From contig CAMJWS010000004.1 of assembly GCA_946409515.1 (NCBI GenBank), positions 36,013 through 100,012 on the forward strand: a DNA stretch of 64,000 nt. Direction: 5' to 3'. Below, in pieces: positions 4,892 through 44,839 of this stretch (within the stretch, counting starts at the first letter, position 1; every line of letters starts with the position of its first letter). The notes beneath the pieces are model-generated. The model was not told the DNA's origin. It did no database searches and worked only from the letters and a program-made list of their open reading frames with translations. Both the position numbers and the translations under genes were made by a program. The stretch is from an uncultured Bacillales bacterium (GTDB taxonomy: Bacteria > Bacillota_I > Bacilli_A > RFN20 > CAG-826).

Positions 4892-6045
4892 ATCTTATAA
4901 CCTTTTGCACGATAAACATTATCCATCTCTTCGCTAGTTAGATATAGCGAGTTAGATAAGTAATCGGTAAGAGAACGATTATACTGGTTAAAAATTAAAA
5001 AGAAAAGACTAATTAATAATAAAATGCCTGAAAACACCGTTCCGTACAATAAATAATTCAATGTGAATAAAGTATTAAAAGGTACAAGCATTGATGGGAT
5101 AAGCATAATGCCTAATAAAGATGTGAATAAAGTATATAAAGCACTGGCCACTACCATTCTTCTTTTCGTATGATTCATAGAATAGAAATCCACTCTTTCG
5201 ATTTTCATAAAAAGCATCGCTAAAGTTTTTCTATTCTTATTTATTAAAGGAAAGATAAGGAATAATCCTGACCAAACAATAACGTGAGAAATATAAGCAC
5301 AAACAGTCATGAGGTTTCCATGATATGTCTCAAGCTCTTTAATACGGCTTTTGCATTCTAAGAAAGAACAAGTTTCGCCATCATAATGTAAGTCGTTCTT
5401 TTCAATGTCATTCATGACCTCTGCTAAAAGGGGATTAAAGAGACTATTAGATATATCCTTATAATACTTCTGACCGGTTTCACCCATATCATCTTTTGGA
5501 TCATAGTAAGCGTATAGTTCGTTTTTAACCTCTATTTTTAAATTATACTCTTTTGTGACATCATTATATTCAAAGTAATTATCCTTCTTGTTATAGTGGT
5601 CAAAACTATCGTAATAAGTTTGTTCTTTATTTCTAATATCGTGATAGAAATGATAGATAGTATCGTTTTCCTTTTTATGACCATATTGAGGTACTTTGCT
5701 ATCAATACTTTCTTCATTATCTAAAACGAAATAACTTAAGAAACAACGATATGTATAATCCACTCCTGCAGTCACATCTGTACGATCAAAACCACTATCA
5801 CGTAATAGCACTTTAGAATTGTAATAATGATCATACATATCGAGCGTGGTTAAAATATGTTCTTCATTTTTAGCGTTATAATTTGTCGCAGCTTTACCAA
5901 TTGGCGCAGCGGCAATATTAAAAATAAGGTAAGTTAAAATAAAGTGTATGAAGAAATCAGCGAGGAAAACTAAGATCCTTTTACCCTTTTTCAAAGGATG
6001 AATATCAATATAATCTTCTTGCTTTATTGTCTCTTCTTCAGTCAT
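4888..6045 (-). CDS. RDD-family membrane protein, paralog of the adjacent gene, with a ~190-aa Tyr/Asp/Lys-rich extracytoplasmic insertion
   Basis: KRILVFLADFFIHFILTYLIF (R..A.D), NKNRKTLAMLFMKIERVD, and C-terminal RSLTDYLSNSLYL. Same topology as the 3815..4891 product. Confidence 0.6.
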   Translation of the reverse strand: MTEEETIKQEDYIDIHPLKKGKRILVFLADFFIHFILTYLIFNIAAAPIGKAATNYNAKNEEHILTTLDMYDHYYNSKVLLRDSGFDRTDVTAGVDYTYRCFLSYFVLDNEESIDSKVPQYGHKKENDTIYHFYHDIRNKEQTYYDSFDHYNKKDNYFEYNDVTKEYNLKIEVKNELYAYYDPKDDMGETGQKYYKDISNSLFNPLLAEVMNDIEKNDLHYDGETCSFLECKSRIKELETYHGNLMTVCAYISHVIVWSGLFLIFPLINKNRKTLAMLFMKIERVDFYSMNHTKRRMVVASALYTLFTSLLGIMLIPSMLVPFNTLFTLNYLLYGTVFSGILLLISLFFLIFNQYNRSLTDYLSNSLYLTSEEMDNVYRAKGYKI

Positions 6046-6051
6046 AACCTA

Positions 6052-7173
6052 CTATAATTCTATTAATATATCCTTAATTGCGTCGAGTTTTTCACTTTCA
6101 ACACCGATCACTTCATTTAGATATTTATATGTCTTTTCTTGTAAGGTTTCGCCTTCATAAGCTTTAAGTGTCGCACCATATCGATCATCGATATCTTCAG
6201 TTTTACATATACCGCTTATTTTAGCGAAGTTGGAGAATAAATAATCACGATATAGATATTCTTCTTCCATTCCACATAAAGCTTCGATTAAATAGGCCAT
6301 ACAGCCTGTTCTATCCTTACCAATCGCGCAGTGGAAATCAATTGGATAATTGTTTTTATCACTAAGTAGTTCAAAGAACTCCTTAATACGCGCTGGATTA
6401 TCGTATAAGAAAGAATTACGTTCACCAACATAAGTGAGAACATTTTCACCACCATAATACATTGGTAAATGGTTATAGGAGACCGTTTCACCTAACGGTG
6501 AGGCTTTGATATTACCATTTTCTCCTGGTCTTCTTAAGTCGATTTCTGTTTTAATTTTTAAAGTGTTTAATAAAACATCTTTAGACTGTTCATCTAATAA
6601 AGAAATACCATCTGCATCTTCGTCTTCGTTGAAGCGTCCACTACGGTAGATTAAACCTTGTTTAATGCCATGCCCGCCTAAATCACGAATGTTCATGACA
6701 TTGTTGACGTATAAGTTACGTGGACCCTTTTTTGCGGTCTTAAAGAGGTGTCCATTGCCTTTAAACTGTACACTATCGCTATAATAAGCGGTTACATCAT
6801 AGGAATAAAACGTATCTAATTTTAAATTATACAGTTCAAATCCATCTGGATTAGTAATTCCACTTTTAGTGAACCAATGTTCGCCTTCTTCAAAGACATC
6901 AACGATATAGTACTTAGGCTTTTTATTGTTGTTTGCTTTAGAGCCTTTCCAATTAATAAAGTATGGTACGGGTTGTTCTTTTGATGAACTACCCGCTGCA
7001 ATACCGTTCGTGGTCATATAATCTTCCGCATTGATGTATTTATTTTGTAATTCTGTATGGAAGTCAAAAGTGAATTCCTGTTTTTCAAACTTGAAATCAA
7101 AAGATGTTGGTTGGCACGCAGTAAGGGCAGTAAGTAGGAACAATGATCCTGATAAAGAAATAGATTTTTTCAT
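6052..7173 (-). CDS. Lipoprotein with C-terminal cysteine-phosphatase domain (protein-tyrosine-phosphatase-like, Y_phosphatase3/PF13350-type)
   Basis: Signal peptide plus lipobox MKKSISLSGSLFLLTALTAC. N-terminal beta-rich domain ending in the conserved PRNLYV motif. Then NVMNIRDLGG and the catalytic P-loop FHCAIGKDRTG (HCX5R). Confidence 0.75.
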   Translation of the reverse strand: MKKSISLSGSLFLLTALTACQPTSFDFKFEKQEFTFDFHTELQNKYINAEDYMTTNGIAAGSSSKEQPVPYFINWKGSKANNNKKPKYYIVDVFEEGEHWFTKSGITNPDGFELYNLKLDTFYSYDVTAYYSDSVQFKGNGHLFKTAKKGPRNLYVNNVMNIRDLGGHGIKQGLIYRSGRFNEDEDADGISLLDEQSKDVLLNTLKIKTEIDLRRPGENGNIKASPLGETVSYNHLPMYYGGENVLTYVGERNSFLYDNPARIKEFFELLSDKNNYPIDFHCAIGKDRTGCMAYLIEALCGMEEEYLYRDYLFSNFAKISGICKTEDIDDRYGATLKAYEGETLQEKTYKYLNEVIGVESEKLDAIKDILIEL

Positions 7174-7273: not shown

Positions 7274-8458
7274 TTACTTGAGAATTTCAGCAACTGTACC
7301 AGCACCAACGGTTCTGCCACCTTCACGGATGGAGAATTTGGTACCTTTTTCCATGGCGATTGGGTGAATGAGTTCGACTGTTAATTCGACGTTATCACCA
7401 GGCATAACCATGTCGACACCAGCAGGAAGTGTGATAACACCTGTGACGTCGGTTGTACGGAAGTAGAATTGTGGACGGTAGTTGCTTAAGAAAGCTGTAT
7501 GACGGCCACCTTCTTCTTTTGTTAAGACGTAGACTTGACCTTTGAACTTGCTGTGTGGGGTAACTGTACCTGGTTTAGCAAGGACTTGACCACGTTCGAC
7601 TTGGTCACGGTTGATACCTCTTAATAAGACACCAACGTTGTCACCGGCTTCGGCGTAATCAAGAATCTTACGGAAGGATTCAAGACCTGTAATAACAGAG
7701 TTTTGTGTTGGTTTGATACCGACGATTTCGACGGCATCACCTAATTTAGCTTGGCCTCTTTCGACACGGCCTGTAACGACGGTACCACGACCGGAGATGG
7801 TCATGACGTCTTCGATAGCTAATAAGAATGGTTTGTCGTTTTCACGAGCTGGAGCTGGGATATAGGAATCGCAAGCTGCCATTAATTCGATGATAGCTTT
7901 TTCAGCTTCTGGGTCACCATCAAGAGCTTTTCTAGCGGAACCACGGATAACTGGAACTTCATCACCTGGGAAGCCGTAGGAATTTAATAATTCACGGACG
8001 TCCATTTCGACTAAGTCTAATAATTCTGGATCATCGACTAAGTCTGTTTTATTGATGAACACAACGATATATGGGACACCGACTTGGCGGGCTAATAAGA
8101 TGTGTTCACGAGTTTGTGGCATAACACCATCAGTACCTGCGACAACGAGGATAGCACCATCCATTTGAGCAGCACCAGTAATCATGTTCTTGACGTAGTC
8201 AGCGTGTCCTGGGCAGTCGACGTGGGCATAGTGTCTTGTCGCTGTTTGATATTCGATGTGAGCGGTGTTGATTGTAATACCACGAGCTTTTTCTTCAGGA
8301 GCGGAGTCGATTTGAGCATAGTCAGTTTTGACTGCGCCACCTTGTTTTGCTAAGACAGATGTAATAGCGGCTGTTAATGTTGTTTTGCCGTGGTCAACGT
8401 GACCGATGGTACCAATATTGACGTGTTGTTTACTTCTGTCAAAATGTTGTTTTGCCAT
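7274..8458 (-). CDS. tuf: Elongation factor Tu
   Basis: [33 protein letters not shown]..., 394 aa, canonical GTP-binding motifs. Confidence 0.97.
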
Positions 8459-8562
8459 AAAATTGAAATCTCCTTTCTTTCGTTAATAACAAGTTTGCAA
8501 CGAAATCATAATATAGCATTAATTTGTTTCGTGCAATATCAATTGATATTACACATTATTTT

Positions 8563-10641
8563 TTAGCGAGCGATATTTCCCGCTTTTTTCAAAATTTCAT
8601 CTTGAACGTATCTTGGTGTTTCACCGTAGTGATCAAATTGCATGACGTAGTTGCCTCTACCTTGAGTCATACTACGTAAGTCGGTGACGTAACCAAACAT
8701 TTCGCTCAATGGTACTTCCGCTTCGATAATCTTAGCGTTAGCTCTTTGAGATTCACCAGTCATTTGTCCTCTTCTACGAGAGATATCACCTAAGACATCA
8801 CCATAGTATTGTTCTGGGACAGTAACTTCAATCTTCATGATTGGTTCTAAGATAACTGGTTGACATTTTTTAGCAGCTTCTTTTAAGGCCATAGAAGCAG
8901 CAATTTTGTAAGCCGCTTCAGAGGAGTCGACATCGTGGTAACTACCATCATAGAGAGTAGCTTTGATATCGATGACTGGGAAGCCTGCAATCATACCTCT
9001 GTTGAGGGCATCTTTTAAGCCTTCTTCAGTTGGTTTGATGTATTCCTTTGGAACAGTGCCGCCAACGATGGCATCGACGAATTCAAAGCCTTTGCCTTCG
9101 TTTGGTTCGAAGCGGATCCAAACGTGACCGTATTGACCACGGCCACCACTTTGACGGACGTATTTACCTTCACATTCGCCCATAGCCTTAATTGTTTCAC
9201 GATATTCGACTTGAGGAGCACCAACGTTAACTTGAACGTTGAATTCTCTCTTCATTCTATCGACGATGATGTCTAAGTGTAATTCACCAACACCAGCGAT
9301 TAAGGTTTGGCCTGTTTCAGGATTTGTTCTCACACGGAAGGTTGGATCTTCTTCGGCGAGTTTTTGTAAGGCGGTGTTCATCTTTTCTTGGTCAGCCTTT
9401 GTTTTTGGTTCAACAGCTTCTTCAATAACTGGAGCTGGGAATTCCATCTTCTCTAAGACGATGGTATTGCCGACATCACAGAGGGTGTCACCAGTGATTG
9501 TGCTCTTTAAACCAACGACCGCACCGATGTCACCAGCGTGAAGTTCTGGAACTTCTTGACGGTGATTAGAGTGCATTAAGACGACACGGCCAATTCTTTC
9601 TTTCACACCTTTGGTGGAGTTATAGACATAGCTACCTGATTTTAATGTACCACTATAGACACGGACATAGGCTAAACGGCCAATGAATGGGTCAGTAGCA
9701 ATCTTGAAGGCTAAGCAAGCAAGAGGAGCGTTGTCATCTGGTTCGCATGTAACTTCATTGCCACGATCATCTGTACCTTTCGCATGAGCGATATCTAATG
9801 GGGATGGTAAGTAATCAATAACACCATCTAATAAAGGTTGAACGTTTTTATTCTTGTAGGCGGAACCACAGAAGACTGGGTGGAATTCACCAGTTAAAAC
9901 TGCTTTACGAATGACAGCTTTGGTTGTTTCTTCGTCTGGTTCTTGACCTTCTAAGACCATCATGAGGATGTCTTCATCGAAGTTAGATAAAGCTTCGAAT
10001 AATTTTTGTCTGAGTTCGAGGAGTTTTTCTTGATATTCTTCTGGAACTGGGACTTCATGTGGTTCTTCGTTCACATCAGAAGCATAAACATATGCTTTTT
10101 GTGTGATGACATCAATCCAACCCTTTAAGGAGGATTCAATGCCGATTGGGTATTGGACAGCTTCCGCATTAGCGCCTAAACGTTCTCTTAAGGAACGAAC
10201 AGACATTTCGTAGTCCGCACCGATAGCGTCGAGTTTGTTAACGAAGACGATACGTGGGACACCATATTTGGAACCTTGTCTCCAAACTGTTTCAGTTTGT
10301 GGTTCGACACCATTCTTACCGTCTAAGACAGTGATAGCACCATCTAAGACACGGAGAGATCTTTCAACTTCGACTGTGAAGTCGACGTGTCCAGGAGTGT
10401 CGATAATGTTGATACGATTACCTTTCCAAGTAGCTGTTGTAGCAGCAGATGTAATGGTAATACCTCTTTCTTGTTCTTGTTCCATCCAGTCCATTGTCGC
10501 GGAACCTTCGTGGGTTTCGCCAATTTTGTGGATTTTACCAGTGAAGTAGAGAATACGTTCGGTTGTTGTGGTTTTACCAGCATCGATGTGAGCCATGATA
10601 CCGATATTGCGTGTATGTGCTAGATCATATTCGCGTGCCAT
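8563..10641 (-). CDS. fusA: Elongation factor G
   Basis: [32 protein letters not shown]..., 692 aa. Confidence 0.97.
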
Positions 10642-30862: not shown

Positions 30863-31321
30863 TTAATCTTCTCCGTTTTTAATGCTGCGTTTAATATCTC
30901 TTTGTTTAATGGTTTCACGCTTGTCGTAAAGCTTTTTACCTTTCGCTAATGCGATTTCCATTTTGGCTTTGCCTCTCTTCAAATACACGCGTGTAGGCAC
31001 GATTGTGAAGCCATCTCGTTTAGCTTTTTCTTCAAACCATTTAATTTCTTTTTTGTGAAGTAATAACTTGCGTGTTCTTAATGGATCGTGATTAAAGATA
31101 TTACCTTTATCATATGGATTGATGTGCATATTAAGAACTTCCATCTCACCACCTCTAATAACGATATAAGCGTCGTTAAGAGAGCAGCCATGTGTACGTA
31201 AAGATTTGATTTCAGTGCCTACTAAAACAAGACCACACTCTGTAAATTCACTTAAAAAGTAATTAAAGTGTGCCTTCTTATTACTAGTAATGATTTTAAT
31301 GCCAGTATCTGTCTTATTCAT
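30863..31321 (-). CDS. smpB: SsrA-binding protein SmpB
   Basis: ...AHFNYFLSEFTECGLVLVGTEIKSLR... SmpB family. ATG at 31321 with GAGGG RBS. Confidence 0.9.
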   Translation of the reverse strand: MNKTDTGIKIITSNKKAHFNYFLSEFTECGLVLVGTEIKSLRTHGCSLNDAYIVIRGGEMEVLNMHINPYDKGNIFNHDPLRTRKLLLHKKEIKWFEEKAKRDGFTIVPTRVYLKRGKAKMEIALAKGKKLYDKRETIKQRDIKRSIKNGED

Positions 31322-33176
31322 TTGAGCCCTCACGAGAAATGGTTTGTAGCACCTTTGTAAATCCTACATCAAAGAATGCATATAAATGGTTATTCTCTTT
31401 TTTATAAAAAATAGAGAATGCTATCATATAGAAGAATATAACGAAAATTGTAAATAATAAAATAGAGAATGTATCAAGCGTGAAATTAAGTTGAAGAGCT
31501 AAACTAACAAGGCTACCCACAACCACAGAAGAAGCAAACGGAATAATGAATTCTTTTCCTAAGAATAATAGTTTGCTATCACCACGTTTCTTGCTCATTA
31601 AAATGAGAGTAACAAAGGCACCAATTAGTGCAGCCGTTGCAACTGAAGCGACAATAATATAAATGACTAAGAGTGTTGGATGAGAATAGATTGGACGGAT
31701 TGAGAATGAAGTAGCAAAGGCCACAATCAAAGCTAATAAGAATGTGCCGACAAAATATAACACATCCCCTCTATGTGGTTTGACTAATGGAGCATTTTGC
31801 TCTTGTAAGTCTTTATTAAGCTCGACGAAATACTTTTCTTTACTAGCATTAACAACTGGTAAGAAGAAGATCATGGTTAAGTATGTACCTTCAATATTTG
31901 GCACAAAGAACATTGTGGATTCAGTGAAGCTATGAGCTAATGCACCAAGGAAGCAAATTCCGTAAATATAAGCGACACGGTACTTCTTATTCTTAATTAA
32001 ATGGACGATTCCAATGAAGAATGTGGATAGCAATGAAAGATAGAATAGCAAGCCAAATAAACCGTGTCTTAAAGTGATTTCAACAATGCCGTTATGAGCA
32101 CTTCTAGCTTCAAAACCACCATTCTGCAATGCATAGTATTTTGTGAAAATGGCGTTACCTGTCTTGTATCCTAAGCCGAATATCAAATCGACTGGTTTTT
32201 CACAAAGTAGATGGAAAACCGATGCCCATATGCCTGTTCTTGATGTTAATGTGCTGTAATCTTTTTTGAAGATATGAGTTTCCATGAATGACCATAAATT
32301 AACGAATAATGGTACATCAAGACTGATCATCATTGTGATGAATCCAAGCAAGGTCAATAGCACGCTGAAATAAATAAATAACAATCTAGCGGCATATCTT
32401 TTACGATCTTTAAACTTGGAAAGGATTTCATATAAGGTATAAGCAATAATTGCGATAGCACTAATAAACACTGATGTTGTGCATGATGAGAAGACAATCA
32501 TGATAAAGAAGTGAATCATTAACGAATAGTAGAAAGGATTGAACTTCCTGATGCTCAAAATAATGCAACTCAAGACAGCTACAAGGATGATATTTGCCCA
32601 AACATTGGAATTATAAATAACGAAAGCTAAACCACCACCGGTATATGTATTTGTGAAAATAGCGATAATGTCTTTGAATTCCATGACAATATCTGCAAGA
32701 GTACAAGTAAAAACCCCGATGACGTATGCAAACGTTAACCATTTTAACCATCTTCTAGATATTGAATAGCGATTAAAGACGAAGAGAATACCATATAAAA
32801 CAGCACACCAAGTGATAATCTGGAGCGTGAATGAAACCTTTTCTTGAACAGTAAATGAAACAAACACTACATCATTATCTAGTGTTAAGAAAGAACGGTC
32901 ACCTTGCCACCAAACAGTGGCAATAGAAACTAAACCGAATATAGTAATAATTGGAAGCAGAACTTTATCAATAGTAATCTTGTTTCTATTTCGCTCTCTA
33001 ACGTAGTAGACAATAAGTAAGAAAATCACGAACATTGAAAGCATAATTAAAGAATCGATACTCATGCCTCCCATGTGATCAGAGCTGAATAACGCAAAGT
33101 TTTCAGCTAGTAAGCAAGAGAACACGATGATAAACCAAAATAGTAAATATGTGAGAGTAAATCTTAATTTTCCCAT
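31314..33176 (-). CDS. Polytopic membrane protein with O-antigen ligase/polymerase (Wzy_C-like) domain
   Basis: 620 aa with more than 12 TM. Central loop ...FEARSAHNGIVEITLRHGLFGLLFYL... resembles the Wzy_C/WaaL family R...HN...E.G..G motif. Confidence 0.6.
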   Translation of the reverse strand: MGKLRFTLTYLLFWFIIVFSCLLAENFALFSSDHMGGMSIDSLIMLSMFVIFLLIVYYVRERNRNKITIDKVLLPIITIFGLVSIATVWWQGDRSFLTLDNDVVFVSFTVQEKVSFTLQIITWCAVLYGILFVFNRYSISRRWLKWLTFAYVIGVFTCTLADIVMEFKDIIAIFTNTYTGGGLAFVIYNSNVWANIILVAVLSCIILSIRKFNPFYYSLMIHFFIMIVFSSCTTSVFISAIAIIAYTLYEILSKFKDRKRYAARLLFIYFSVLLTLLGFITMMISLDVPLFVNLWSFMETHIFKKDYSTLTSRTGIWASVFHLLCEKPVDLIFGLGYKTGNAIFTKYYALQNGGFEARSAHNGIVEITLRHGLFGLLFYLSLLSTFFIGIVHLIKNKKYRVAYIYGICFLGALAHSFTESTMFFVPNIEGTYLTMIFFLPVVNASKEKYFVELNKDLQEQNAPLVKPHRGDVLYFVGTFLLALIVAFATSFSIRPIYSHPTLLVIYIIVASVATAALIGAFVTLILMSKKRGDSKLLFLGKEFIIPFASSVVVGSLVSLALQLNFTLDTFSILLFTIFVIFFYMIAFSIFYKKENNHLYAFFDVGFTKVLQTISREGSNE

Positions 33177-36960: not shown

Positions 36961-37818
36961 TTAGCCTTGTTTCTTTTTGTTGAAGACCGGCCAGAAAGCA
37001 TCTGCACCATAATCAATACGATTAAGTTTCATGAGTTCAATCATGTCTTCTTCACTAATTTCAAAATCTAGTTTCATATTATCTTCAATATGTTCTTTAC
37101 TAGATGCTTTTGGAATAGAGATTGTATCTAATTGTAAGGTGTATTTGATACATAGCTGAGGTACTGATACACCATACTTTTTCGCCATTGCTTGAATCTT
37201 CACGTCATCTAACGCTCTACCATGAGCGATTGGAGAATAAGCTTCCACAACGATATCGTTTTCTTGGCAGAATTTAATAACATCAACAGGGGTTTCACCG
37301 ATATGCAAAAGGATTTGATTAGCCATCGGTTTGATTTCACAATTATTGATGATGTTTTCAAGGTCATCCACTAAGAAATTCGATACACCTATCGCCTTAA
37401 GTTTACCTTCTTTATAGGCTTCTTCCATGGCTTTCCATACTTGAATATTCTGTTTGAAGTATCTAAATGGCCCTCTAAATAATGCCCAAGGTTGTGGGCA
37501 GTGAATAAGCATTAAATCAATATAATCAACACCTAATTTCTTTAACGATTCATCGATTGATGCTTTAGCTTTTGCATAAGACTTTAGTTCTGCTTTAACT
37601 TTGGAGGTAATAAAGACTTCTTCTCTTTTAAGACCAGACTCTCTAATACCTTGTCCAACGCCTTCTTCATTGCCGTATGCTTGTGCGGTATCGATGTGGC
37701 GATAACCAGCTTCTAAAGCCATCTTAACACAGTTAGCGGCATTCTCATTTTTAATTAGCCATGTCCCATACGCTAAAGCTGGTGCTTTAACACCATTGTG
37801 CAAAACAAATTCTTTCAT
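36961..37818 (-). CDS. Aldo/keto reductase family oxidoreductase
   Basis: ...AYGTWLIKNENAANCVKMALEAGYRHIDTAQAYGNEEGVG... AKR signatures. ATG at 37818 with AGAGGG RBS. Confidence 0.85.
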   Translation of the reverse strand: MKEFVLHNGVKAPALAYGTWLIKNENAANCVKMALEAGYRHIDTAQAYGNEEGVGQGIRESGLKREEVFITSKVKAELKSYAKAKASIDESLKKLGVDYIDLMLIHCPQPWALFRGPFRYFKQNIQVWKAMEEAYKEGKLKAIGVSNFLVDDLENIINNCEIKPMANQILLHIGETPVDVIKFCQENDIVVEAYSPIAHGRALDDVKIQAMAKKYGVSVPQLCIKYTLQLDTISIPKASSKEHIEDNMKLDFEISEEDMIELMKLNRIDYGADAFWPVFNKKKQG

Positions 37819-37891
37819 ATTTAAAAACCCTCTAAAGACATTTTGCCATAGAGGGTTTATTTTTAGCAAAGATTTTGCTTTTAAATGTTTT

Positions 37892-40276
37892 CTAGTAGAC
37901 CAATCTCACTTGTTCAGTGAACAACAAGCGATAATCAAAATTATTATGAACAAATTCGATTTCTAAGTTAGTATCGTTAGCAATGTTATAACCAACAATA
38001 TCAAAGTACTGACCTGTTGTTGTTAAACCTAATTGTCCATATGTCTGACCGTTTGTAAGAAGAATGCTTTGGGTAGCGCCATTAATCTTTACTTCATATT
38101 TGCTACTATCGAACGTTTGAGAAGAATGTGTGCTGTAAGACATCTTTATATTGAATTGAAGTTTAACTTCACCTGCCTTTGCAGGAATATCCCATTTGAA
38201 TGTGGTTTTGACCTTGTTATTGCCAGAGCCGCCGATTTTACCATCGCTGTCAATTGAACCATCTATGGATGTGTAGTCAGTAAACTTAATAGCAATATAC
38301 TTTTTACCACAGTCGCATAAATAAGTAGTGACTTGTTTGCCAGCTTTATTTGTGATTGGAGTTTGTGCGACATAGTTATGGGTTGTATGTTCGCCACCTA
38401 CACCACCACCTTGAGAGCCACCACCTTGAGCAGTAGCGGCATCAAAGATATAAATACCGCCAATGTTCATCGAATTTGAGGTGCCTGTGACCTTAATTGT
38501 GTGGCTACCCTCTGAAATATCAACTTCGCCTAGAATAACCGGGTAATAGTTATATCTTGAGCCACACTTGCCCATTCTTGCATCTGAATATGTTTGATCT
38601 TTCATGCTGATGGAAGTGTTGTCTAATGAGCAACCGACTGCATCCGCTATTTTTTTAGAAGAAGATGAATCACCATTTCCTAAATAGGCAACAACTTGAC
38701 CCTTATATGCTTTAGAGGCATTAAAAGTATAGCTAACTGATTGAGAAGAACTATTTAAGGTGTAATAGTTATCTGGATTATTTCTATCAGAGGCATCAGT
38801 TTTAAGGCTTGTTCCTGAAGCAGTTAATGTGTTAGCGGGCGCAATTACTTGACCTGCGTCATTGTCTTTTGCTACTTGTCCTTCTGTCAAATTAGCGATG
38901 ACGGTATCTAATGTAGTCTTAGAAACGCCAATTGAAAGTAGCATGTTGTAAACTTTATTTTTGAATGTTTTGCCTGACATGTTTTGGATGTCATTAATAT
39001 AGTTTTGAATATTATCTTTACCAGCTTTTGGGCCAATATATCTCTTTTCTTGGATCTTACCAAAGTTAGAGAATAAGTAGTCTTGATATATTTCATTTAG
39101 GGAAACACCAAGTAAACCAGATAATAAGATTGCACATAAGCCAGTTCTATCTGTGCCAATACGGCAATGAAAGAAAACAGGATAGTTATTTGAATCGCCT
39201 AATAAGTTAAAAAAGTTTTTAACAGATTCGGTATTTCTAGAGAAGTGATGAGAACCACCGTCATAATCCATTAAGAAGTCTTTTACAGTTGTACCGCTTA
39301 ACTTAAGGTTATATTTAGTGCCATCAGCTACATTTACTTCGGTCTTCACTTTTAAGTGTTGAAGCATTTCTTTTTTGCCATCTTCTGTAATCACAGTGCT
39401 ATAGTCATACTGGTACCCACTTGTTCTATAGACAAGGCCTTGCTTCATTTTGCCACCATCTTCAAGAACTCTTCCACCCATATCGCGGCAGTTAGTCATG
39501 CCACCGATGGTGAGATTTCTTGGATAAGTTGTATCTACATCAAAGAATCTAATTTCAGTCGATTCTTTTTGTCCATCAGAGAAGTTAGCCACTAATTTAT
39601 AGTAGTTTCTACCTAAATATGGATTGTAATAGGCTACTGACTTAGTTGATGTCTTGATTTCATAACCATCGCTTAAGTCTTCTTTTTGACCGCTTATGAA
39701 GCTGTAGTTAGAAACTGTTTTACCACTAGGAGCGGTGTAGTTCCACGAAAGATTGACTGGTAACGAATCTGAAAGGTGTTGCGTGCCATCTGGATATTGA
39801 TTCTCAGGCATTTGATCATAATTACCAGAATAAGATAAATAAGCCTTCTGATCGGCAGTATGAATCTCTACTGGAGCGTTAAACTCTGTGATGTTAGAAA
39901 AGTTACCTTCGCCAACGGGAGGCTGGCTAGTAGATGAACTGCTAGAAGAGCTCGATGAAGAAGAACTACTAGAGCCGCTGCTTGATGATGGCTTGCTACT
40001 AGAACTACTACTAGAAGAAGATTTGCTACTGCTCGAACTAGAACCGCTACTCTTGCTAGAGCTAGAAGAACTGCTCTTGTTTGAATTTGAACTAGATTTG
40101 TTTGAACTACTAGATGCAGACTCGCTAGACTCAGAATCACTTGAAGATATTGAACCGCTTTCTATAACACTAGAAGGTTCTTTGCTTTCCTGACTGCTAT
40201 TAGCCACTACAGTACATGAAGAAATAATTAGCGTTGATAAAAAAGCTAAACTTAGAAACATTTTTCTTTTTTTCAT
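37892..40276 (-). CDS. Large surface lipoprotein (794 aa): ~85-aa Ser-rich linker, PRNL beta-domain, cysteine-phosphatase domain (PF13350-like) and two C-terminal beta-rich, possibly carbohydrate-binding, domains
   Basis: Lipobox LIISSC. Ser-rich tract SSSNKSSSNSNKSSSSSSSK.... The motifs TYPRNLTIGGMTNCRDMGG and FFHCRIGTDRTG (HCX5R) follow, and then a long Gly/Thr/Asn-rich C-terminal region. Confidence 0.75.
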   Translation of the reverse strand: MKKRKMFLSLAFLSTLIISSCTVVANSSQESKEPSSVIESGSISSSDSESSESASSSSNKSSSNSNKSSSSSSSKSSGSSSSSSKSSSSSSSSSKPSSSSGSSSSSSSSSSSSSSTSQPPVGEGNFSNITEFNAPVEIHTADQKAYLSYSGNYDQMPENQYPDGTQHLSDSLPVNLSWNYTAPSGKTVSNYSFISGQKEDLSDGYEIKTSTKSVAYYNPYLGRNYYKLVANFSDGQKESTEIRFFDVDTTYPRNLTIGGMTNCRDMGGRVLEDGGKMKQGLVYRTSGYQYDYSTVITEDGKKEMLQHLKVKTEVNVADGTKYNLKLSGTTVKDFLMDYDGGSHHFSRNTESVKNFFNLLGDSNNYPVFFHCRIGTDRTGLCAILLSGLLGVSLNEIYQDYLFSNFGKIQEKRYIGPKAGKDNIQNYINDIQNMSGKTFKNKVYNMLLSIGVSKTTLDTVIANLTEGQVAKDNDAGQVIAPANTLTASGTSLKTDASDRNNPDNYYTLNSSSQSVSYTFNASKAYKGQVVAYLGNGDSSSSKKIADAVGCSLDNTSISMKDQTYSDARMGKCGSRYNYYPVILGEVDISEGSHTIKVTGTSNSMNIGGIYIFDAATAQGGGSQGGGVGGEHTTHNYVAQTPITNKAGKQVTTYLCDCGKKYIAIKFTDYTSIDGSIDSDGKIGGSGNNKVKTTFKWDIPAKAGEVKLQFNIKMSYSTHSSQTFDSSKYEVKINGATQSILLTNGQTYGQLGLTTTGQYFDIVGYNIANDTNLEIEFVHNNFDYRLLFTEQVRLVY
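39930..40190 (-). repeat. Low-complexity Ser-codon tandem repeat (AGC/AGT/TCT/TCG-rich) encoding the poly-Ser linker
   Basis: Visible as gctagaagaact/gctactagaa-type reiterations. The +strand ORF 39888..40193 and the small -strand ORF 39868..40140 are alternative-frame artefacts of this tract. Confidence 0.7.
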
Positions 40277-40335
40277 AGATGTAACTCCCTTGGATATTTA
40301 TATTTTCATATATGAAAAATTAATAATCAACAAAT

Positions 40336-40368
40336 AAAATAAAAGGCTCTCTTAAGAGAACCTTTTTT
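40336..40368 (-). terminator. Intrinsic terminator downstream of the 546-aa lipoprotein gene
   Basis: aaaauaaaaGGCUCUCuuaaGAGAACCuuuuuug: a hairpin flanked by A-rich and T-rich tracts. Confidence 0.55.
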
Positions 40369-40383
40369 GATTAGTTTTTGCAA

Positions 40384-42024
40384 TTAGGCAGCGTGATCAG
40401 CGATGGTAATAGAGCCAACGTTGAATGTGCCATTCTTAGAGCTGATTTCCACTGTATGTTCACCAGCAGTTAATTCATAATTGCCTAAGATGTTGAACAT
40501 ATAGCCGTATCTATCTTTGCTTCTTGTTTGTCCGAAGCCAGCGGTCCATAAGTTCTTTGTGTTAGAAATGGTTTGTTCGACACCATCAATCTTTAATGTG
40601 ATGGAAGCTGATAATTTTGTGGATGTGTTTTGGTCAACAGAACCTGTGTAACCCATATAGACAATAACATCTTTTTTACCAGCAGTTGTTGTTGCTTTGA
40701 AGCTAGCTTTTTTGCCACTAGCTAAAGCGTAGTAGGTAGCTGGGGCTTTATAATCTGAGCTTGTTGACTTTGTGCCATCAGAAGTTAAGCCATCACCTTC
40801 ACCAACTTTAAATGTTTCTGGGATTTGAGCTTTTTCACCGATTGTCATGAAATCGATAATCTTGTCTAACTTTTCAGCAGAAACACCGATCATACGGAGA
40901 GCAAGGTAGACTTGTTCTTGGAATGTTTCACCTGGTAAGGCTAAGATTTCATCGATATATTTTCTAATATCATCACCATTGGTATCTGGGGTTTTGCCAG
41001 GATATCTTTGGTTATCGATTGGAGCAAAATTTGAGAAACCATAGTCTTGAAGTGCTTCATTAAATGGAACACCAAGTAAACCATTAATCATGATACCTGT
41101 GATACCTGTTCTATCTGTACCGATACGGCAGTGATAGAAGAGTGGGTAGTTATTTTCATCGGCTAAAACATCCATAACTTGTCTAATTTTCACAGAGTTT
41201 CTAGCTAAGTTAGAATATGGAACTGCGCCATAATCCATATAGCAGTTTTTAAGATTTACACCAGATAAGTTAACATTATTGTCATCTTTATCTGCAACGT
41301 TGATTTCTGTCTTAATGCCAAATTGTTCGGTTAAGATTCTTTTTGCTTCATCATTAGATGGAGTACCATTGTCAAATTTGCTACCGCTACCACGATAGAT
41401 TAAGCCTTGTTTGATTTTGCCACCGGCATAGGTTGTTCTACCACCCATATCACGGAAGTTTGGCATATTGCCAACATATAAGTTTCTTGGAGCTTGTTCT
41501 GTCACTTTGAAGGTTTTAACTTCACTTGATTGTTTTTGACCTGTTGTGAAGTTAGCAACGATTTTGAAATAGTTTGTGCCCAAGAAAGAATTGTAGAAAC
41601 TAATTGTAGTTTCTTTTGTACCTTGGACAACGTATGGATCGCTTAAATCCTCGTATTGACTAAAGACTAATGAGTAGTTCTTTAATTCATAACCATCTGG
41701 AGCTTCATATTCCCAGTTAAGTGTTGTTTTTTCAGGAGTGGAAACGTTTTTGTTACCGTAAGCATCACAAGAATCTAAGTCACTCTTTGTAATTTGGTAG
41801 TATTGTTTGGAAAGATTTAAATACTTTAATTGATTGGCGGTGTGAATTTCTTGAACTGTTTCGAGTTCATCATCATCAAAATTATAAGTACCACCAGTTA
41901 TTTCATCTGGATCTTGACTGCTAGGTTGGGCGCTACTACTCTTACCACCGGCTGGTTGATTGTCACAGCCAACCACGGATAAAGCAAGGATAAGAAGCGA
42001 ACCTAAAACGAATTTTTTGTTCAT
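40384..42024 (-). CDS. Surface lipoprotein (546 aa) with PRNL beta-domain, cysteine-phosphatase domain (PF13350-like) and a C-terminal beta-rich domain
   Basis: Lipobox LSVVGC. Motifs APRNLYVGNMPNFRDMGG and LFYHCRIGTDRTG. The C-terminal GEHTVEISSKNGTFNVGSITI is homologous to the C-terminus of the 794-aa paralog. Confidence 0.75.
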   Translation of the reverse strand: MNKKFVLGSLLILALSVVGCDNQPAGGKSSSAQPSSQDPDEITGGTYNFDDDELETVQEIHTANQLKYLNLSKQYYQITKSDLDSCDAYGNKNVSTPEKTTLNWEYEAPDGYELKNYSLVFSQYEDLSDPYVVQGTKETTISFYNSFLGTNYFKIVANFTTGQKQSSEVKTFKVTEQAPRNLYVGNMPNFRDMGGRTTYAGGKIKQGLIYRGSGSKFDNGTPSNDEAKRILTEQFGIKTEINVADKDDNNVNLSGVNLKNCYMDYGAVPYSNLARNSVKIRQVMDVLADENNYPLFYHCRIGTDRTGITGIMINGLLGVPFNEALQDYGFSNFAPIDNQRYPGKTPDTNGDDIRKYIDEILALPGETFQEQVYLALRMIGVSAEKLDKIIDFMTIGEKAQIPETFKVGEGDGLTSDGTKSTSSDYKAPATYYALASGKKASFKATTTAGKKDVIVYMGYTGSVDQNTSTKLSASITLKIDGVEQTISNTKNLWTAGFGQTRSKDRYGYMFNILGNYELTAGEHTVEISSKNGTFNVGSITIADHAA

Positions 42025-42136
42025 AATATCTAATACCTCTGTGGAACATTCTATTACTTTTTTATGACTAATAAAAGTGACTATTATCTTATAGTTATTA
42101 TGACTTTTGGGTTAGTTTATAGTTTGTTTAAGTTTC

Positions 42137-42172
42137 AAAAGAAAAGGGAACCAAGACCGGTTCCCTATTTTG
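42137..42172 (-). terminator. Intrinsic terminator downstream of the 282-aa lipoprotein gene
   Basis: aaaagaaaaGGGAACCaagaccGGUUCCCuauuuuguauug: a perfect 7-bp stem with flanking A-rich and T-rich tracts. Confidence 0.65.
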
Positions 42173-42191
42173 TATTGTATTAATCTTTAAA

Positions 42192-43040
42192 TTATGCGGC
42201 TGGTGTAGCAGGAGCAGCAAAGACAATAACGAAATCGTGAACAGCTAAGTTGAAACTATCAACTCTGGTGTATTTGATTGTATTTAAACCAGCAGCTAAA
42301 GAAACAGCGCCGATTTCACAATCGCCTAATGGAGACCACTTATGATCACCAAAATCCATACCGCCTTCTTCTGGAATAACATCACCAAATTTGAATGATG
42401 TCTTATCAGCGATACTAACTTCAGTCATTGCGCCTTCTAAACCAATTTCAACTTTGAAGTTACCAATGCCATTTGCAGCATCAGTATGGTCGTTATTTTC
42501 ATCATAGTAACCTTTGTTTTGATTGTTGTTTGAATCTTCGTACCAATAGTCCATACGGCCACGTTGATAGAGAACACCAGTCACAGCTTCTGCTAAGTTG
42601 AACTTAACTTCAAAGGTATCGCCATCTTTACCTAATTTAATGCAACCTTCTGGAGCACTCTTAGGAGTTCCGGTGTGTGTGTTTTCAGCGGTAGAAATCA
42701 TAATACCTTTAGAATTACAAACTGAACATTTGACTTTCTTGTAAGCGACTCCACCATTGCTTGCTTCAACATCGCCATCATCAGCCCATGTGTGTTGTTT
42801 GAGTTTTGCAATTGGTCTTGTTTCCGTATTACCGGCATCACTTTCGCGTTTTTCTTGACCTTCAGCACCACATGTGGCTGGAGTAACTACTGTCCATTCG
42901 CCCCATTTTTCTTTAGAAGTTGAAGGTTTTTGAGATGATGGTTGTTTGGAATTTGACTTGTCTGCATTATTTCCACCATTACAAGCGGCTAAAGATAATG
43001 CAGCAAAAACGGTCATTAAAGCGACTAATCTTTTTTTCAT
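42192..43040 (-). CDS. Lipoprotein (282 aa), function unknown, with Cys-containing N-terminal region
   Basis: Lipobox LSLAAC. Lys/Ser-rich linker and several Cys pairs (CGAEGQ, CSVCNSKG, CIKLG, CEIG). The terminator before it and the one after it suggest a monocistronic unit. Confidence 0.6.
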   Translation of the reverse strand: MKKRLVALMTVFAALSLAACNGGNNADKSNSKQPSSQKPSTSKEKWGEWTVVTPATCGAEGQEKRESDAGNTETRPIAKLKQHTWADDGDVEASNGGVAYKKVKCSVCNSKGIMISTAENTHTGTPKSAPEGCIKLGKDGDTFEVKFNLAEAVTGVLYQRGRMDYWYEDSNNNQNKGYYDENNDHTDAANGIGNFKVEIGLEGAMTEVSIADKTSFKFGDVIPEEGGMDFGDHKWSPLGDCEIGAVSLAAGLNTIKYTRVDSFNLAVHDFVIVFAAPATPAA

Positions 43041-43109
43041 TAAAAAATTTCCTCCGAAAAAATATTATGTTTTATCTAACACTATTCGTGTTTAGTAAAT
43101 CTTAAATAT

Positions 43110-43118
43110 ATTATAGCA
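43110..43118 (-). promoter_or_regulatory. Extended -10 element (TGcTATAAT) upstream of the 282-aa lipoprotein gene
   Basis: Reverse complement of 43110-43118 gives TGcTATAAT. No good -35 hexamer is present, and the element overlaps the stop codon of the upstream gene. Confidence 0.35.
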
Positions 43119-43896
43119 AGAAATTTTCAATTCTATTACAAATTAAATAACCTTCACGATTATGCACATCTGTACGGTTGTACATCATGCGCTGTTTATT
43201 AGGGGTTAAAAATACACCACCAGCTTGTTCAACGATGACTTGGCTAGCGGCGGTATCCCACTCCTTAGTGCCATCACTTAGGCGATATGTAAGCTCGCCC
43301 AAGCCTTGTGCGATCCTGCATGCCTTTAAGGCAGAACCCCACTTTTCAATTTTGGTAATTTTATTTGGATATTTTGCGATTACAGCATCTTCTTCTGGCT
43401 TGGAATGGAAGACACTCTTATAAACGGTCAAATTATCAATTTTATCGTTGACGTGTATGCGTTTTGTGAGTCCGTCTTTACGATAGAAGGCTCCTAAACC
43501 TTTAGCGGCGAAATAAATTTCACCAGTTAATGGAACAACTACGACACCGACCACTGCTTCGTGTTTATAAGCAAGCGCAATGTTTGTGGTGAAGCCACCA
43601 TCTTTGGCCACGAAATCTTTTGTGCCATCGACTGGATCAACAATCCAAACGAAATCGTTATCTAATCTAGATATATCGTCAGTACTTTCTTCAGTTAAGA
43701 AAGCGTATGTTGGAAATTTTTTGTGAAGATACTCTCTAATTACTTTATCGGCGTTTTTATCAGCGAGAGTAACTGGAGAATTATCATCTTTGATTTCCAC
43801 AGAAAAGTCAGTGTTGTATATTTCTAATATACCTTTGATTGCTTTAACACCCGCTTCAATCGCGGCTTCGAGTTGTTCTTCCCACATTCTATTCAT
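43111..43896 (-). CDS. Inositol-monophosphatase-family phosphatase (CysQ/SuhB-like; probable 3'-phosphoadenosine 5'-phosphate or inositol-phosphate phosphatase)
   Basis: WIVDPVDGT metal-binding motif and EESTDD upstream motif; 261 aa. Overlaps nrnA by 8 nt. Confidence 0.75.
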   Translation of the reverse strand: MNRMWEEQLEAAIEAGVKAIKGILEIYNTDFSVEIKDDNSPVTLADKNADKVIREYLHKKFPTYAFLTEESTDDISRLDNDFVWIVDPVDGTKDFVAKDGGFTTNIALAYKHEAVVGVVVVPLTGEIYFAAKGLGAFYRKDGLTKRIHVNDKIDNLTVYKSVFHSKPEEDAVIAKYPNKITKIEKWGSALKACRIAQGLGELTYRLSDGTKEWDTAASQVIVEQAGGVFLTPNKQRMMYNRTDVHNREGYLICNRIENFLL

Positions 43897-44839
43897 TTCC
43901 TTTCTTCACCACTCCGGCAAGTAAGTCTAAAAGCTCATTAATAACTTCTGGACCAAACTTCTTGTAAGTAAAGCCTGCGGCGAATGTATGACCACCACCA
44001 CCAAAGTGAGTGGCTATTTTTTGAATGTCAAAGGTGCTACTACGCAATTCTACTTGCATACCACCATTATCGGTTTCAGAAGCAACAAACCAAACCGGGA
44101 AACCTGTGACATAACTTAATAATGAAGTATTACCACAGATTTGAGCGGAGGTAACTCCGAGTTGTTCTCTTTCTTTCTTAGTGGCGACAGTGTAGATGAT
44201 ACCACGTTCATCTTTTTTAACGTGGCTATAAATAAATGATTTAATTGTTATTGATATTTCAGGAACTAAATTGTTTGTCTTATTCAATAAGATTGGATCA
44301 ACACCGAGATCACATAAATCACGGGCGATTTCAAACATCCTGACAAAGTTGTTAGCGAATTGGAATCTCGCGGTATCAGTCATCATACCAAGGTATAGAG
44401 CACTACCAGCGATTAAATCGATTTCTAAATTGTTTTCTTTAGCGAAACGATAAATCAATTCACAAGTTGATGTGGCATTATCGTCAATGACCTCTGGACC
44501 TTCATGGAAAGTATGAGTGTCAATGTGATGATCAATTTTGGCAAAATCACGTGCTTTCCACGCTCTTTGATCTTCCAAACGATTGATGTCATTGCTATCA
44601 AGAACTATAGCTAAAGATTGGGCAATTATTTCATCAGAAACAACATCCATTTTGCCGAGAATACCAAAAAACTTTTTTAACCCACTACCTACACAGTAGA
44701 TTTGTTTTTCTGGATATCTCGTTTTGAGAATGTTTCTTAGAGCAATTTGGCTTCCATAACAATCACCATCTGGATTAAGATGACCGAAAATTACTGTCGA
44801 ATCATATTGCTCAATCTTGGAGATGATCGCCTCAAACAT
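43889..44839 (-). CDS. nrnA: Bifunctional oligoribonuclease/pAp phosphatase NrnA (DHH-DHHA1)
   Basis: Motifs FGHLNPDGDCYGS, DHHIDTH and GGGHTFAAG; 316 aa. Confidence 0.85.
   Translation of the reverse strand: MFEAIISKIEQYDSTVIFGHLNPDGDCYGSQIALRNILKTRYPEKQIYCVGSGLKKFFGILGKMDVVSDEIIAQSLAIVLDSNDINRLEDQRAWKARDFAKIDHHIDTHTFHEGPEVIDDNATSTCELIYRFAKENNLEIDLIAGSALYLGMMTDTARFQFANNFVRMFEIARDLCDLGVDPILLNKTNNLVPEISITIKSFIYSHVKKDERGIIYTVATKKEREQLGVTSAQICGNTSLLSYVTGFPVWFVASETDNGGMQVELRSSTFDIQKIATHFGGGGHTFAAGFTYKKFGPEVINELLDLLAGVVKKGNE

Follow-up and report, generated by a model that had tools for sequence, protein, structure and literature searches.

The window analyzed here, the whole 64,000-nucleotide stretch of contig CAMJWS010000004.1 from an uncultured Bacillales bacterium, carries three adjacent minus-strand lipoprotein genes, as an initial annotation had reported from the sequence. 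Their products of 794, 546, and 282 amino acids (aa) are called here P794, P546, and L282. P794 and P546 combine a Cys-based phosphatase domain of Pfam family PF13350 with domains resembling carbohydrate-binding modules (CBMs), and a residue that binds substrate in known enzymes of the family is replaced in both. We propose that they are surface-anchored, glycan-targeted enzymes that release phosphate and are encoded in a variable lipoprotein island of rumen Bacilli, a reading to which we give an even chance.

Architecture and active site of P794 and P546

P794 consists, from its N terminus, of a signal peptide, a Ser-rich linker, a domain termed here the N-domain, the PF13350 phosphatase domain, a CBM-like β-sandwich (a), a Gly-rich linker, and a Cys knuckle followed by a second CBM-like sandwich (b); coordinates are given in Table 1. 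P546 is laid out more simply, with the lipobox VVGC20, a short linker, the N-domain, the phosphatase domain, and CBM-like a. The two proteins are 38% identical over 524 aa (BLASTP, E = 2e-110), which supports their description as modular paralogues. The alignment takes in the C-terminal stretch, GSHTIKVTGTSNSMNIGGIYIF and GEHTVEISSKNGTFNVGSITI, for which the initial annotation had claimed homology, and it bears that claim out.

The phosphatase domain said to be common to both proteins was confirmed by Pfam, with PF13350 scores of 78.4 bits for P794 and 70.5 bits for P546 (gathering threshold, 22.2). The domain of P794 opens with YPRNL..NCRDMGGR, a motif with its counterpart at the beginning of the solved homologue 8dhi; what had been described as a separate "PRNL domain" is merely these first residues. 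Compared with solved structures, the phosphatase-domain profile matched 8dhi with an E value of 2.2e-20 and MptpB (1ywf) with one of 0.017. No paper was found for PDB code 8DHI.

Both proteins carry the P-loop HCRIGTDRTG, which has the form HCX5R(S/T) of the PTP superfamily. In P794 it provides the nucleophile Cys371, the in-loop Asp376, and Arg377, with Arg372 at P-loop position 2 and Thr375 at position 5; the catalytic Asp at position 6 is present in P546 as Asp304. MptpB-type atypical lipid phosphatases (ALPs) are defined by the signature HCXXGKDR[TA]G, with a strictly conserved, substrate-binding Lys at position 5 and a catalytic Asp at position 6 (PMC3091653; Beresford et al. 2010); activity on poly-phosphorylated inositides goes along with additional basic residues at position 2 (PMC3091653). 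Measured against this signature, P794 and P546 retain Asp, Arg, and TG and have an Arg at position 2, but the Lys is replaced by Thr, as it is in essentially the whole subfamily. Judged by their sequences, they are thus PF13350 members that depart from the ALP signature at one of its defining positions, and the activities and substrates of MptpB, LipA, and Pho16B are not simply transferable to them.

Among 241 collected relatives that show a P-loop motif, 235 have HCRIGTDRTG, and the six exceptions are conservative (e.g., HCKIGTDRTG). Each residue of the loop is at least 90% conserved in the alignment of relatives, and many residues of the phosphatase domain are nearly invariant across the family, copies from fungi included. 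The retention of the motif implies that phosphatases of the P794/P546 type are active enzymes under selection, as predicted from these alignments.

The N-domain, of approximately 125 residues, lies upstream of the phosphatase domain in P794, in P546, and in a third paralogue, the 373-aa lipoprotein P373. A profile of it matched the second FN3 domain of EphA2 in the PDB (E = 9e-4) with its second half only, which has the usual FN3 hallmark positions, and we tentatively regard it as FN3-like. The gene for P373 is located directly downstream of tuf. This protein is 30% identical to P546, has a PF13350 score of 93.5 bits, and is without a CBM-like domain; its P-loop, HCAIGKDRTG (6304..6333), is that of a canonical ALP and fits the signature in full.

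Structure models were made for residues 471 to 794 of P794 and for L282. The AlphaFold2 model of the former (predicted local distance difference test [pLDDT], 90.7) has two β-sandwiches flanking the disordered Gly-rich linker. Using Foldseek against the PDB, the P794 sandwich matched CBM35 2w1w and CBM6 2cdp with template modeling (TM) scores of 0.73 and 0.74, respectively, and a probability of 1.00; it has the superimposable β-sandwich jelly-roll that characterizes these two families. Structure prediction, which the initial annotation had suggested for the C-terminal regions, hence assigns this domain as a CBM6/35-like sandwich. The pair of sandwiches matched tandem malectin-like ectodomains and Cry-protoxin domains. 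P794 carries approximately 180 more C-terminal residues than P546: residues 631 to 794, which form a His/Cys knuckle (H..H..C654-x-C656) and then the second β-sandwich, have no counterpart in P546.

The N termini of P794, P546, and L282 each comprise a basic n-region and a hydrophobic stretch that leads to a lipobox, namely, ISSC21, VVGC20, and LAAC20 in MKKRKMFLSLAFLSTLIISSC, MNKKFVLGSLLILALSVVGC, and MKKRLVALMTVFAALSLAAC, respectively. These lipoboxes follow the pattern [LVI][ASTVI][GAS]C and lie in the first 35 or so residues, as expected of bacterial lipoproteins. The Cys of the lipobox does not vary in the alignment of the L282 family, and in a mixed alignment of P794 and P546 relatives its conservation is 90% or more. 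From the lipoboxes we infer that the three proteins are anchored through an N-acyl-diacylglyceryl-Cys.

Table 1. Features of the lipoprotein genes (positions in the window, except for the loci of relatives in the last row; ORF, open reading frame)
Feature	Coordinates	Strand	Basis
P794, 794-aa lipoprotein	37892..40276	-	ORF; PF13350; AlphaFold2 model and Foldseek
P794 signal peptide, residues 1-21, lipobox I-S-S-C21	40214..40276	-	Sequence; Cys conserved
P794 Ser-rich low-complexity linker, residues 22-125	39902..40213	-	Composition, codon mix
P794 N-domain, residues 126-250 (172-250 FN3-like)	39527..39901	-	Profile vs PDB
P794 Cys-based phosphatase domain, residues 251-470	38867..39526	-	PF13350 Y_phosphatase3; profile matches
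P794 P-loop HCRIGTDRTG, residues 370-379	39140..39169	-	Sequence
P794 CBM6/35-like β-sandwich a, residues 471-617	38426..38866	-	AlphaFold2, Foldseek, BLASTP
P794 Gly-rich interdomain linker, residues 618-630	38387..38425	-	pLDDT <50 (model residues 148-160)
P794 extra C-terminal module, residues 631-794	37895..38386	-	Model, Foldseek, BLASTP
P546, 546-aa lipoprotein	40384..42024	-	ORF, Pfam, BLASTP vs P794
P546 P-loop HCRIGTDRTG	41104..41133	-	Sequence
L282, 282-aa lipoprotein, lipobox LAAC20	42192..43040	-	ORF, family alignment, model
P373, third paralogue, 373-aa lipoprotein	6052..7173	-	ORF; N-domain and PF13350 (2.6e-26)
Terminator-like hairpin and T-run after P794 gene	37825..37858	-	-16.5 kcal/mol, z -5.4
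Terminator-like hairpin and T-run after P546 gene	40341..40366	-	-14.0 kcal/mol, z -4.95
Terminator-like hairpin and T-run after L282 gene	42145..42166	-	-14.7 kcal/mol, z -2.9
Extra island genes of relatives	L005 975..3777, 8207..9817; L002 1671..3782		Comparison with the window

The Ser-rich linker and the lipoprotein island

The linker that follows the lipobox of P794 probably acts as a disordered tether, to judge from its composition: its 104 residues include 65 Ser (62%), 6 Lys, 6 Glu, 5 Asn, and 5 Gly. The initial annotation had placed a linker of about 85 residues at 39930..40190; the tract is real, and its boundaries widen to those in Table 1. The accompanying claim of a reiterated, slippage-prone Ser-codon repeat did not hold for the window. 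Five Ser codons are interleaved (TCT, 21; AGT, 17; AGC, 16; TCA, 9; TCG, 2), the same codon never occurs more than three times consecutively, and the longest exact repeat is 11 nucleotides (nt), compared with 12.8 ± 2.1 nt in synonymous-codon shuffles, so that the tract is no more repetitive than the shuffles. Tandem Repeats Finder detected no tandem repeat of the tract in 37000..44000, where it reported a single unrelated 19-nt match.

Variation in linker length between related genomes, which had been predicted, was found when the distance from the lipobox Cys to the conserved motif F-x-N-I-T-E-F was compared. The linker has 104 residues in the window, 111 in L010, the closest locus retrieved, and 82 to 93 in relatives of approximately 89% identity, with a range of 45 to 144 among relatives of comparable size. 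When pairs were grouped by their identity in the folded part, lengths differed in 13% of those with 99% or more, by no more than 12 residues, in 40% of those at 97 to 99%, and in 84% of those at 95 to 97%; the sequences come from metagenome assemblies, and some of the differences may reflect misassembly of low-complexity stretches. Many near-identical relatives have linkers of exactly equal length.

The Ser run of the window differs from those of the relatives L001 and L002 by insertions or deletions (indels) of 33 and 39 nt, which keep the frame. As all the indels seen are multiples of 3, they indicate length drift in an unconstrained spacer rather than on/off switching. The relative L007 has a long run of Ser alone whose DNA (5883..5970) is a genuine tandem repeat of a 9-nt unit, TTCTAGCAG, in 9.4 copies with 87% matches. 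On this picture, the tract has repeatedly grown and shrunk in frame, its codons diverging afterward.

Database entries of 639 to 641 aa, among them the 100%-identical P0121 as well as P0144, P0158, P0159, and P0179, start at Met156. Frameshifting or phase variation was considered as their origin and rejected: the two loci checked, L010 and L011, contain intact in-frame full ORFs, and their short calls are thus gene-caller artefacts. Exact-sequence look-ups with P794, P546, and P0121 returned no record. A spurious antisense ORF was called across the Ser tract of L011 (1821..2219), and the tract of the window likewise yields spurious Leu-rich ORFs in other frames and in antisense (39868..40193, both strands). 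In practical terms, gene callers misannotate P794-type genes, and the Met156 starts hide the lipoprotein anchor and the linker in public annotation.

The other island lipoproteins of relatives also have linkers, rich in Ser, Thr, Pro, or Gln. Approximately 5 kb away from the cluster, 31314..33176 (minus strand) codes for a 620-aa membrane protein of the Wzy_C (O-antigen ligase-like) family, which is kept in the relative L001. Some Wzy_C-family proteins are O-oligosaccharyltransferases for Ser-rich segments, which makes this gene a lead for linker glycosylation.

The nearest genomes, and the sources of all close relatives, were assembled from rumen metagenomes; the nearest carry the label Bacilli bacterium or uncultured Erysipelotrichaceae. 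Their gene order is conserved: a gene of the inositol-monophosphatase family is followed by the lipoprotein genes, an aldo-keto reductase gene, and the glutaminyl-tRNA synthetase gene. Identity to relatives is 88 to 98% for the flanking genes, 75 to 85% for P794, 65 to 81% for P546, and 44 to 57% for L282, where the latter is not missing altogether. By these comparisons, the interval from the inositol-monophosphatase-family gene to the aldo-keto reductase gene is a variable, fast-evolving lipoprotein island. In relatives it additionally codes for lipoproteins of 270, 360 to 371, and 536 aa and for a 205-aa membrane protein, all absent from the window; the 536-aa lipoprotein contains two copies of CBM-like a (E = 5.8e-9) and Big_2 domains. 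The more distant locus L008 (approximately 49% identical) also has two adjacent copies, both nearer to P794 than to P546. The P794/P546 tandem duplication appears to be old. A sub-branch of the P794 family (P0195 to P0236; 1066 to 1181 aa) has an additional, apparently folded N-terminal region of approximately 300 to 400 residues after the lipobox instead of the Ser linker.

Full-length homologues with 56% identity (query, 37895..39919) were found in the anaerobic gut fungi Orpinomyces sp. (P0221) and Anaeromyces robustus (P0222). They retain the N-domain, the phosphatase domain with HCRIGTDR[TS]G, and both sandwiches. In the Orpinomyces protein, a eukaryotic signal peptide and three hevein-type chitin-binding repeats take the place of the lipobox and linker. 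The presence of full-length homologues in fungi suggests inter-kingdom gene transfer within the rumen, and the sequences point to a cell-surface location preserved by means of another anchor. The main text of a published survey of horizontal gene transfer in anaerobic fungi does not mention the phosphatase.

Proposed function and its alternatives

According to our proposal, P794, P546, and L282 would be lipid anchored to the outer surface of the membrane. The Ser-rich linker would serve as a flexible spacer that keeps the enzyme off the membrane; since it is unstructured, in-frame indels would be tolerated and its length would drift between strains. The CBM-like modules would dock the enzyme on polysaccharide or feed particles. 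With Cys371 as the nucleophile and Asp376 as the general acid, the Cys371/Asp376/Arg377 site would hydrolyze phosphomonoesters of the sugar or inositol type, i.e., phytate, lower inositol phosphates, or phosphorylated glycans, and free phosphate at the cell surface. There is a precedent in Pho16B, a secreted soil enzyme of PF13350 that hydrolyzes phytate and many other phosphoesters (PMC6409689).

Several observations weigh against this proposal. The ALP Lys that binds substrate is missing from the P-loop, which argues against copying the activities of MptpB, LipA, or Pho16B. None of P794, P546, and L282 matches a Pfam CBM family at E ≤ 0.1, and fold similarity at 10 to 18% identity, seen in models, would not prove sugar binding. 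A phosphate transporter or Pho-type regulatory site was not found near the cluster, and the neighboring inositol-monophosphatase-family gene is conserved housekeeping context that provides no pathway evidence.

The substrates might instead be the glycans themselves. In plants and animals the closest functional analogy is offered by the glucan phosphatases SEX4/LSF2 and laforin, likewise Cys-based PTP-superfamily phosphatases joined to a CBM, and bacterial extracellular counterparts would clear starch or other phosphorylated polysaccharides of phosphate esters and so open them to glycosidases, the release of phosphate being a by-product. The layout of phosphatase plus CBM-like modules is kept in bacteria and in anaerobic fungi alike, two groups that degrade plant polymers, and the island encodes several noncatalytic CBM-like lipoproteins. 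However, the P-loop signature of glucan phosphatases is C-z-A-G-psi-G-R, which the loop C-R-I-G-T-D-R does not fit; the folds are CBM6/35 or malectin-like, not the starch-binding CBM20/48 of that group; and no glycoside hydrolase genes adjoin the cluster. The eukaryotic enzymes are moreover intracellular and related to P794 and P546 at the superfamily level only. We consider a glycan phosphatase of this kind unlikely. The broader idea is equally improbable in our estimation, namely, that P794, P546, and approximately 1,000 relatives, fungal copies included, form an unrecognized class of cell-surface glycan phosphatases, in which a retooled MptpB-type site, HC[RK]IGTDR, would be aimed by CBM6/35-like modules at phosphorylated polysaccharides of plants or microbes.

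Three further explanations are disfavored. The membership of PF13350 and the in-loop catalytic Asp are also those of effector phosphatases of the MptpB or Listeria LipA type, acting on phosphoinositides or protein tyrosines, and Arg at P-loop position 2 recalls enzymes that take poly-phosphorylated inositol lipids; targets could be membranes or proteins of rumen protozoa, fungi, or the host epithelium. We regard such a role as quite unlikely: the Lys at position 5, required for phosphoinositide binding in MptpB, Lmo1800, and LM1, is Thr in the 235 of 241 relatives, the proteins are predicted to be lipid anchored rather than released, the hosts are free-living rumen commensals, and anaerobic fungi carry the gene themselves. 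The Ser tract would make the cluster a contingency or antigenic-variation locus if it were a hypermutable simple repeat that changes frequently within populations. Linker length indeed differs between proteins at least 99% identical elsewhere, the L007 tract is a 9-nt tandem repeat, and the surface genes are changing far more quickly than the genes around them. Thus, of the two hallmarks of simple-sequence contingency loci, length polymorphism is present, and a tandem repeat is found in L007 but not in the window. Since in addition the indels preserve the frame and so allow no on/off switching, the two checkable short entries are gene-calling artefacts rather than frameshifts, and many near-identical relatives are equal in length while some differences may be assembly errors, we give this explanation very little credence. 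Finally, the proteins could be mainly adhesins, with CBM-like and FN3-like modules attaching to feed particles and a vestigial phosphatase. The number of binding-type modules per protein would be in keeping with this, as would L282 and other island lipoproteins, which have no catalytic domain; the complete catalytic motif and the near invariance of many phosphatase residues, also in the fungal copies, make it the most improbable of these explanations.

Comparison with known systems delimits what is new in the proposed phosphate-releasing lipoproteins. With the ALPs MptpB, Lmo1800/LipA, and Pho16B, P794 and P546 have in common the PF13350 family, the CX5R loop with a general-acid Asp inside, [TA]G after the Arg, an N-terminal N-x-RD-x-GG motif, and export, and 8dhi is the nearest solved structure by sequence. 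They differ by the change from Lys to Thr at position 5 and the basic residue at position 2, by a predicted lipid anchor where ALPs are secreted, and by the FN3-like N-domain and one (P546) or two (P794) CBM6/35-like domains, which are not reported for MptpB, Lmo1800, or Pho16B. The PTP-like phytases, exemplified by PhyA of Selenomonas ruminantium, also are extracytoplasmic Cys-based phosphatases from the rumen and take phosphate from inositol phosphates; they belong to another family, PF14566, to which P794, P546, and L282 gave no Pfam match at E ≤ 0.1, they have another P-loop (HCEAGVGRT in PhyA), and they are without the lipobox/CBM architecture. The sandwiches of P794 and L282 match the CBM6/CBM35 folds, but at 10 to 18% identity and with a phosphatase rather than a glycoside hydrolase as the partner.

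Serine-rich repeat glycoproteins (SRRPs) of Gram-positive bacteria are marked by Ser repeats of the dipeptide type and of great length, by an LPXTG anchor at the C terminus, and by adjacent genes for accessory Sec and glycosyltransferases. P794 does not fit this description: it has an N-terminal lipobox, ends in ...EQVRLVY without LPXTG, and has housekeeping neighbors. Disordered linkers of variable length are found directly after the lipidated Cys in outer-membrane lipoproteins of Escherichia coli (bioRxiv 10.1101/2021.01.05.425367). The P794 linker is much longer, with its 62% Ser over 104 residues, and belongs to a host of Bacilli lineage, where Lol-type sorting does not apply; a spacer role is what we infer for it.

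L282, gene ends, and meaning of the cluster

The model of L282 (pLDDT, 86.9) is disordered to about residue 38, signal peptide included, and continues with β-hairpins and then a sandwich; the disordered linker has approximately 25 residues. In Foldseek the sandwich matched CBM35 and CBM6 more weakly than that of P794 (E = 1e-4 to 1e-2; TM, approximately 0.55 to 0.6). Residues C57, H83, W85, C105, C108, and C133 are invariant and belong to one or more degenerate His/Cys hairpin modules. The description of L282 as Cys-rich was overstated, with 6 Cys among 282 residues, the lipobox Cys counted. According to the model, L282 is a noncatalytic lipoprotein that combines a His/Cys hairpin module with a CBM6/35-like sandwich.

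A common origin of the modules of L282 and P794 was examined for CBM-like a and the C-terminal extension of P794 and rejected, as phmmer and hhalign gave no significant match (best E = 0.0085, over 18 columns). The sole links are the fold class and the common layout of a His/Cys hairpin followed by a sandwich. The database protein P0341, as its sequence reads, appears to join modules of the L282 and P794 types.

A profile of the L282 family matched 30,390 cluster representatives (50% identity) at E ≤ 1e-3, the best-listed matches lying mostly in its N-terminal part. Among the matches P0331 to P0472, up to 44 stretches were matched per protein, in proteins of up to 7,583 aa. The repeat unit is approximately 39 residues long, H-x-[WYF]...[AP]-T-C...G...C-x-x-C, and the hairpin region of L282 (residues ~45 to 135) is a degenerate copy of it. 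No family covering the repeat was found in the seven matches scanned with Pfam or the four scanned with NCBIfam. The pattern of one His and three Cys suggests that the unit may be a small metal-binding module.

The terminators claimed after the P546 and L282 genes are present, and a third terminator-like hairpin follows the P794 gene, where the terminator scan had overlooked it because of its long loop (Table 1). All three genes hence look independently terminated, in support of the initial view of individually terminated genes for surface lipoproteins. The hairpin of the P794 gene stands between this gene and the aldo-keto reductase gene, and its 3′ arm contains a Shine-Dalgarno-like GAGGG, 8 nt before the ATG at 37818. 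This ATG, rather than the listed TTG at 37869, is likely the true start of the aldo-keto reductase gene. A promoter scan of the window performed no better than on shuffled sequences; the sole promoter-like matches noted were extended -10 elements, TGCTATAAT, upstream of the L282 and P373 genes. No Pho-box-like repeats were found upstream of the four lipoprotein genes.

The PF13350/ALP family, lipoprotein tethers, and CBM6/35 folds are already known, and NCBI names relatives "tyrosine-protein phosphatase." Three features appear undescribed in the literature searched: the subfamily-wide change in the P-loop, the fusion of a PF13350-type phosphatase with CBM-like modules on a lipoprotein scaffold, and the occurrence of this fusion in anaerobic fungi. 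Otherwise P794, P546, and L282 are ordinary fast-evolving surface lipoproteins with low-complexity tethers.

If active, the P794/P546-type enzymes would represent an MptpB-like subfamily with an altered substrate-binding loop and built-in targeting modules, common to rumen bacteria and anaerobic fungi. If they did form a class of glycan phosphatases, they would be a microbial extracellular counterpart of SEX4 and laforin that aids the degradation of fiber or starch in the rumen. The Cys-phosphatase phytases known from the rumen belong to another family than P794 and P546, and, if the proposed function is true, phosphate release and the removal of phosphate esters from feed polymers by these lipoproteins would bear on ruminant nutrition.

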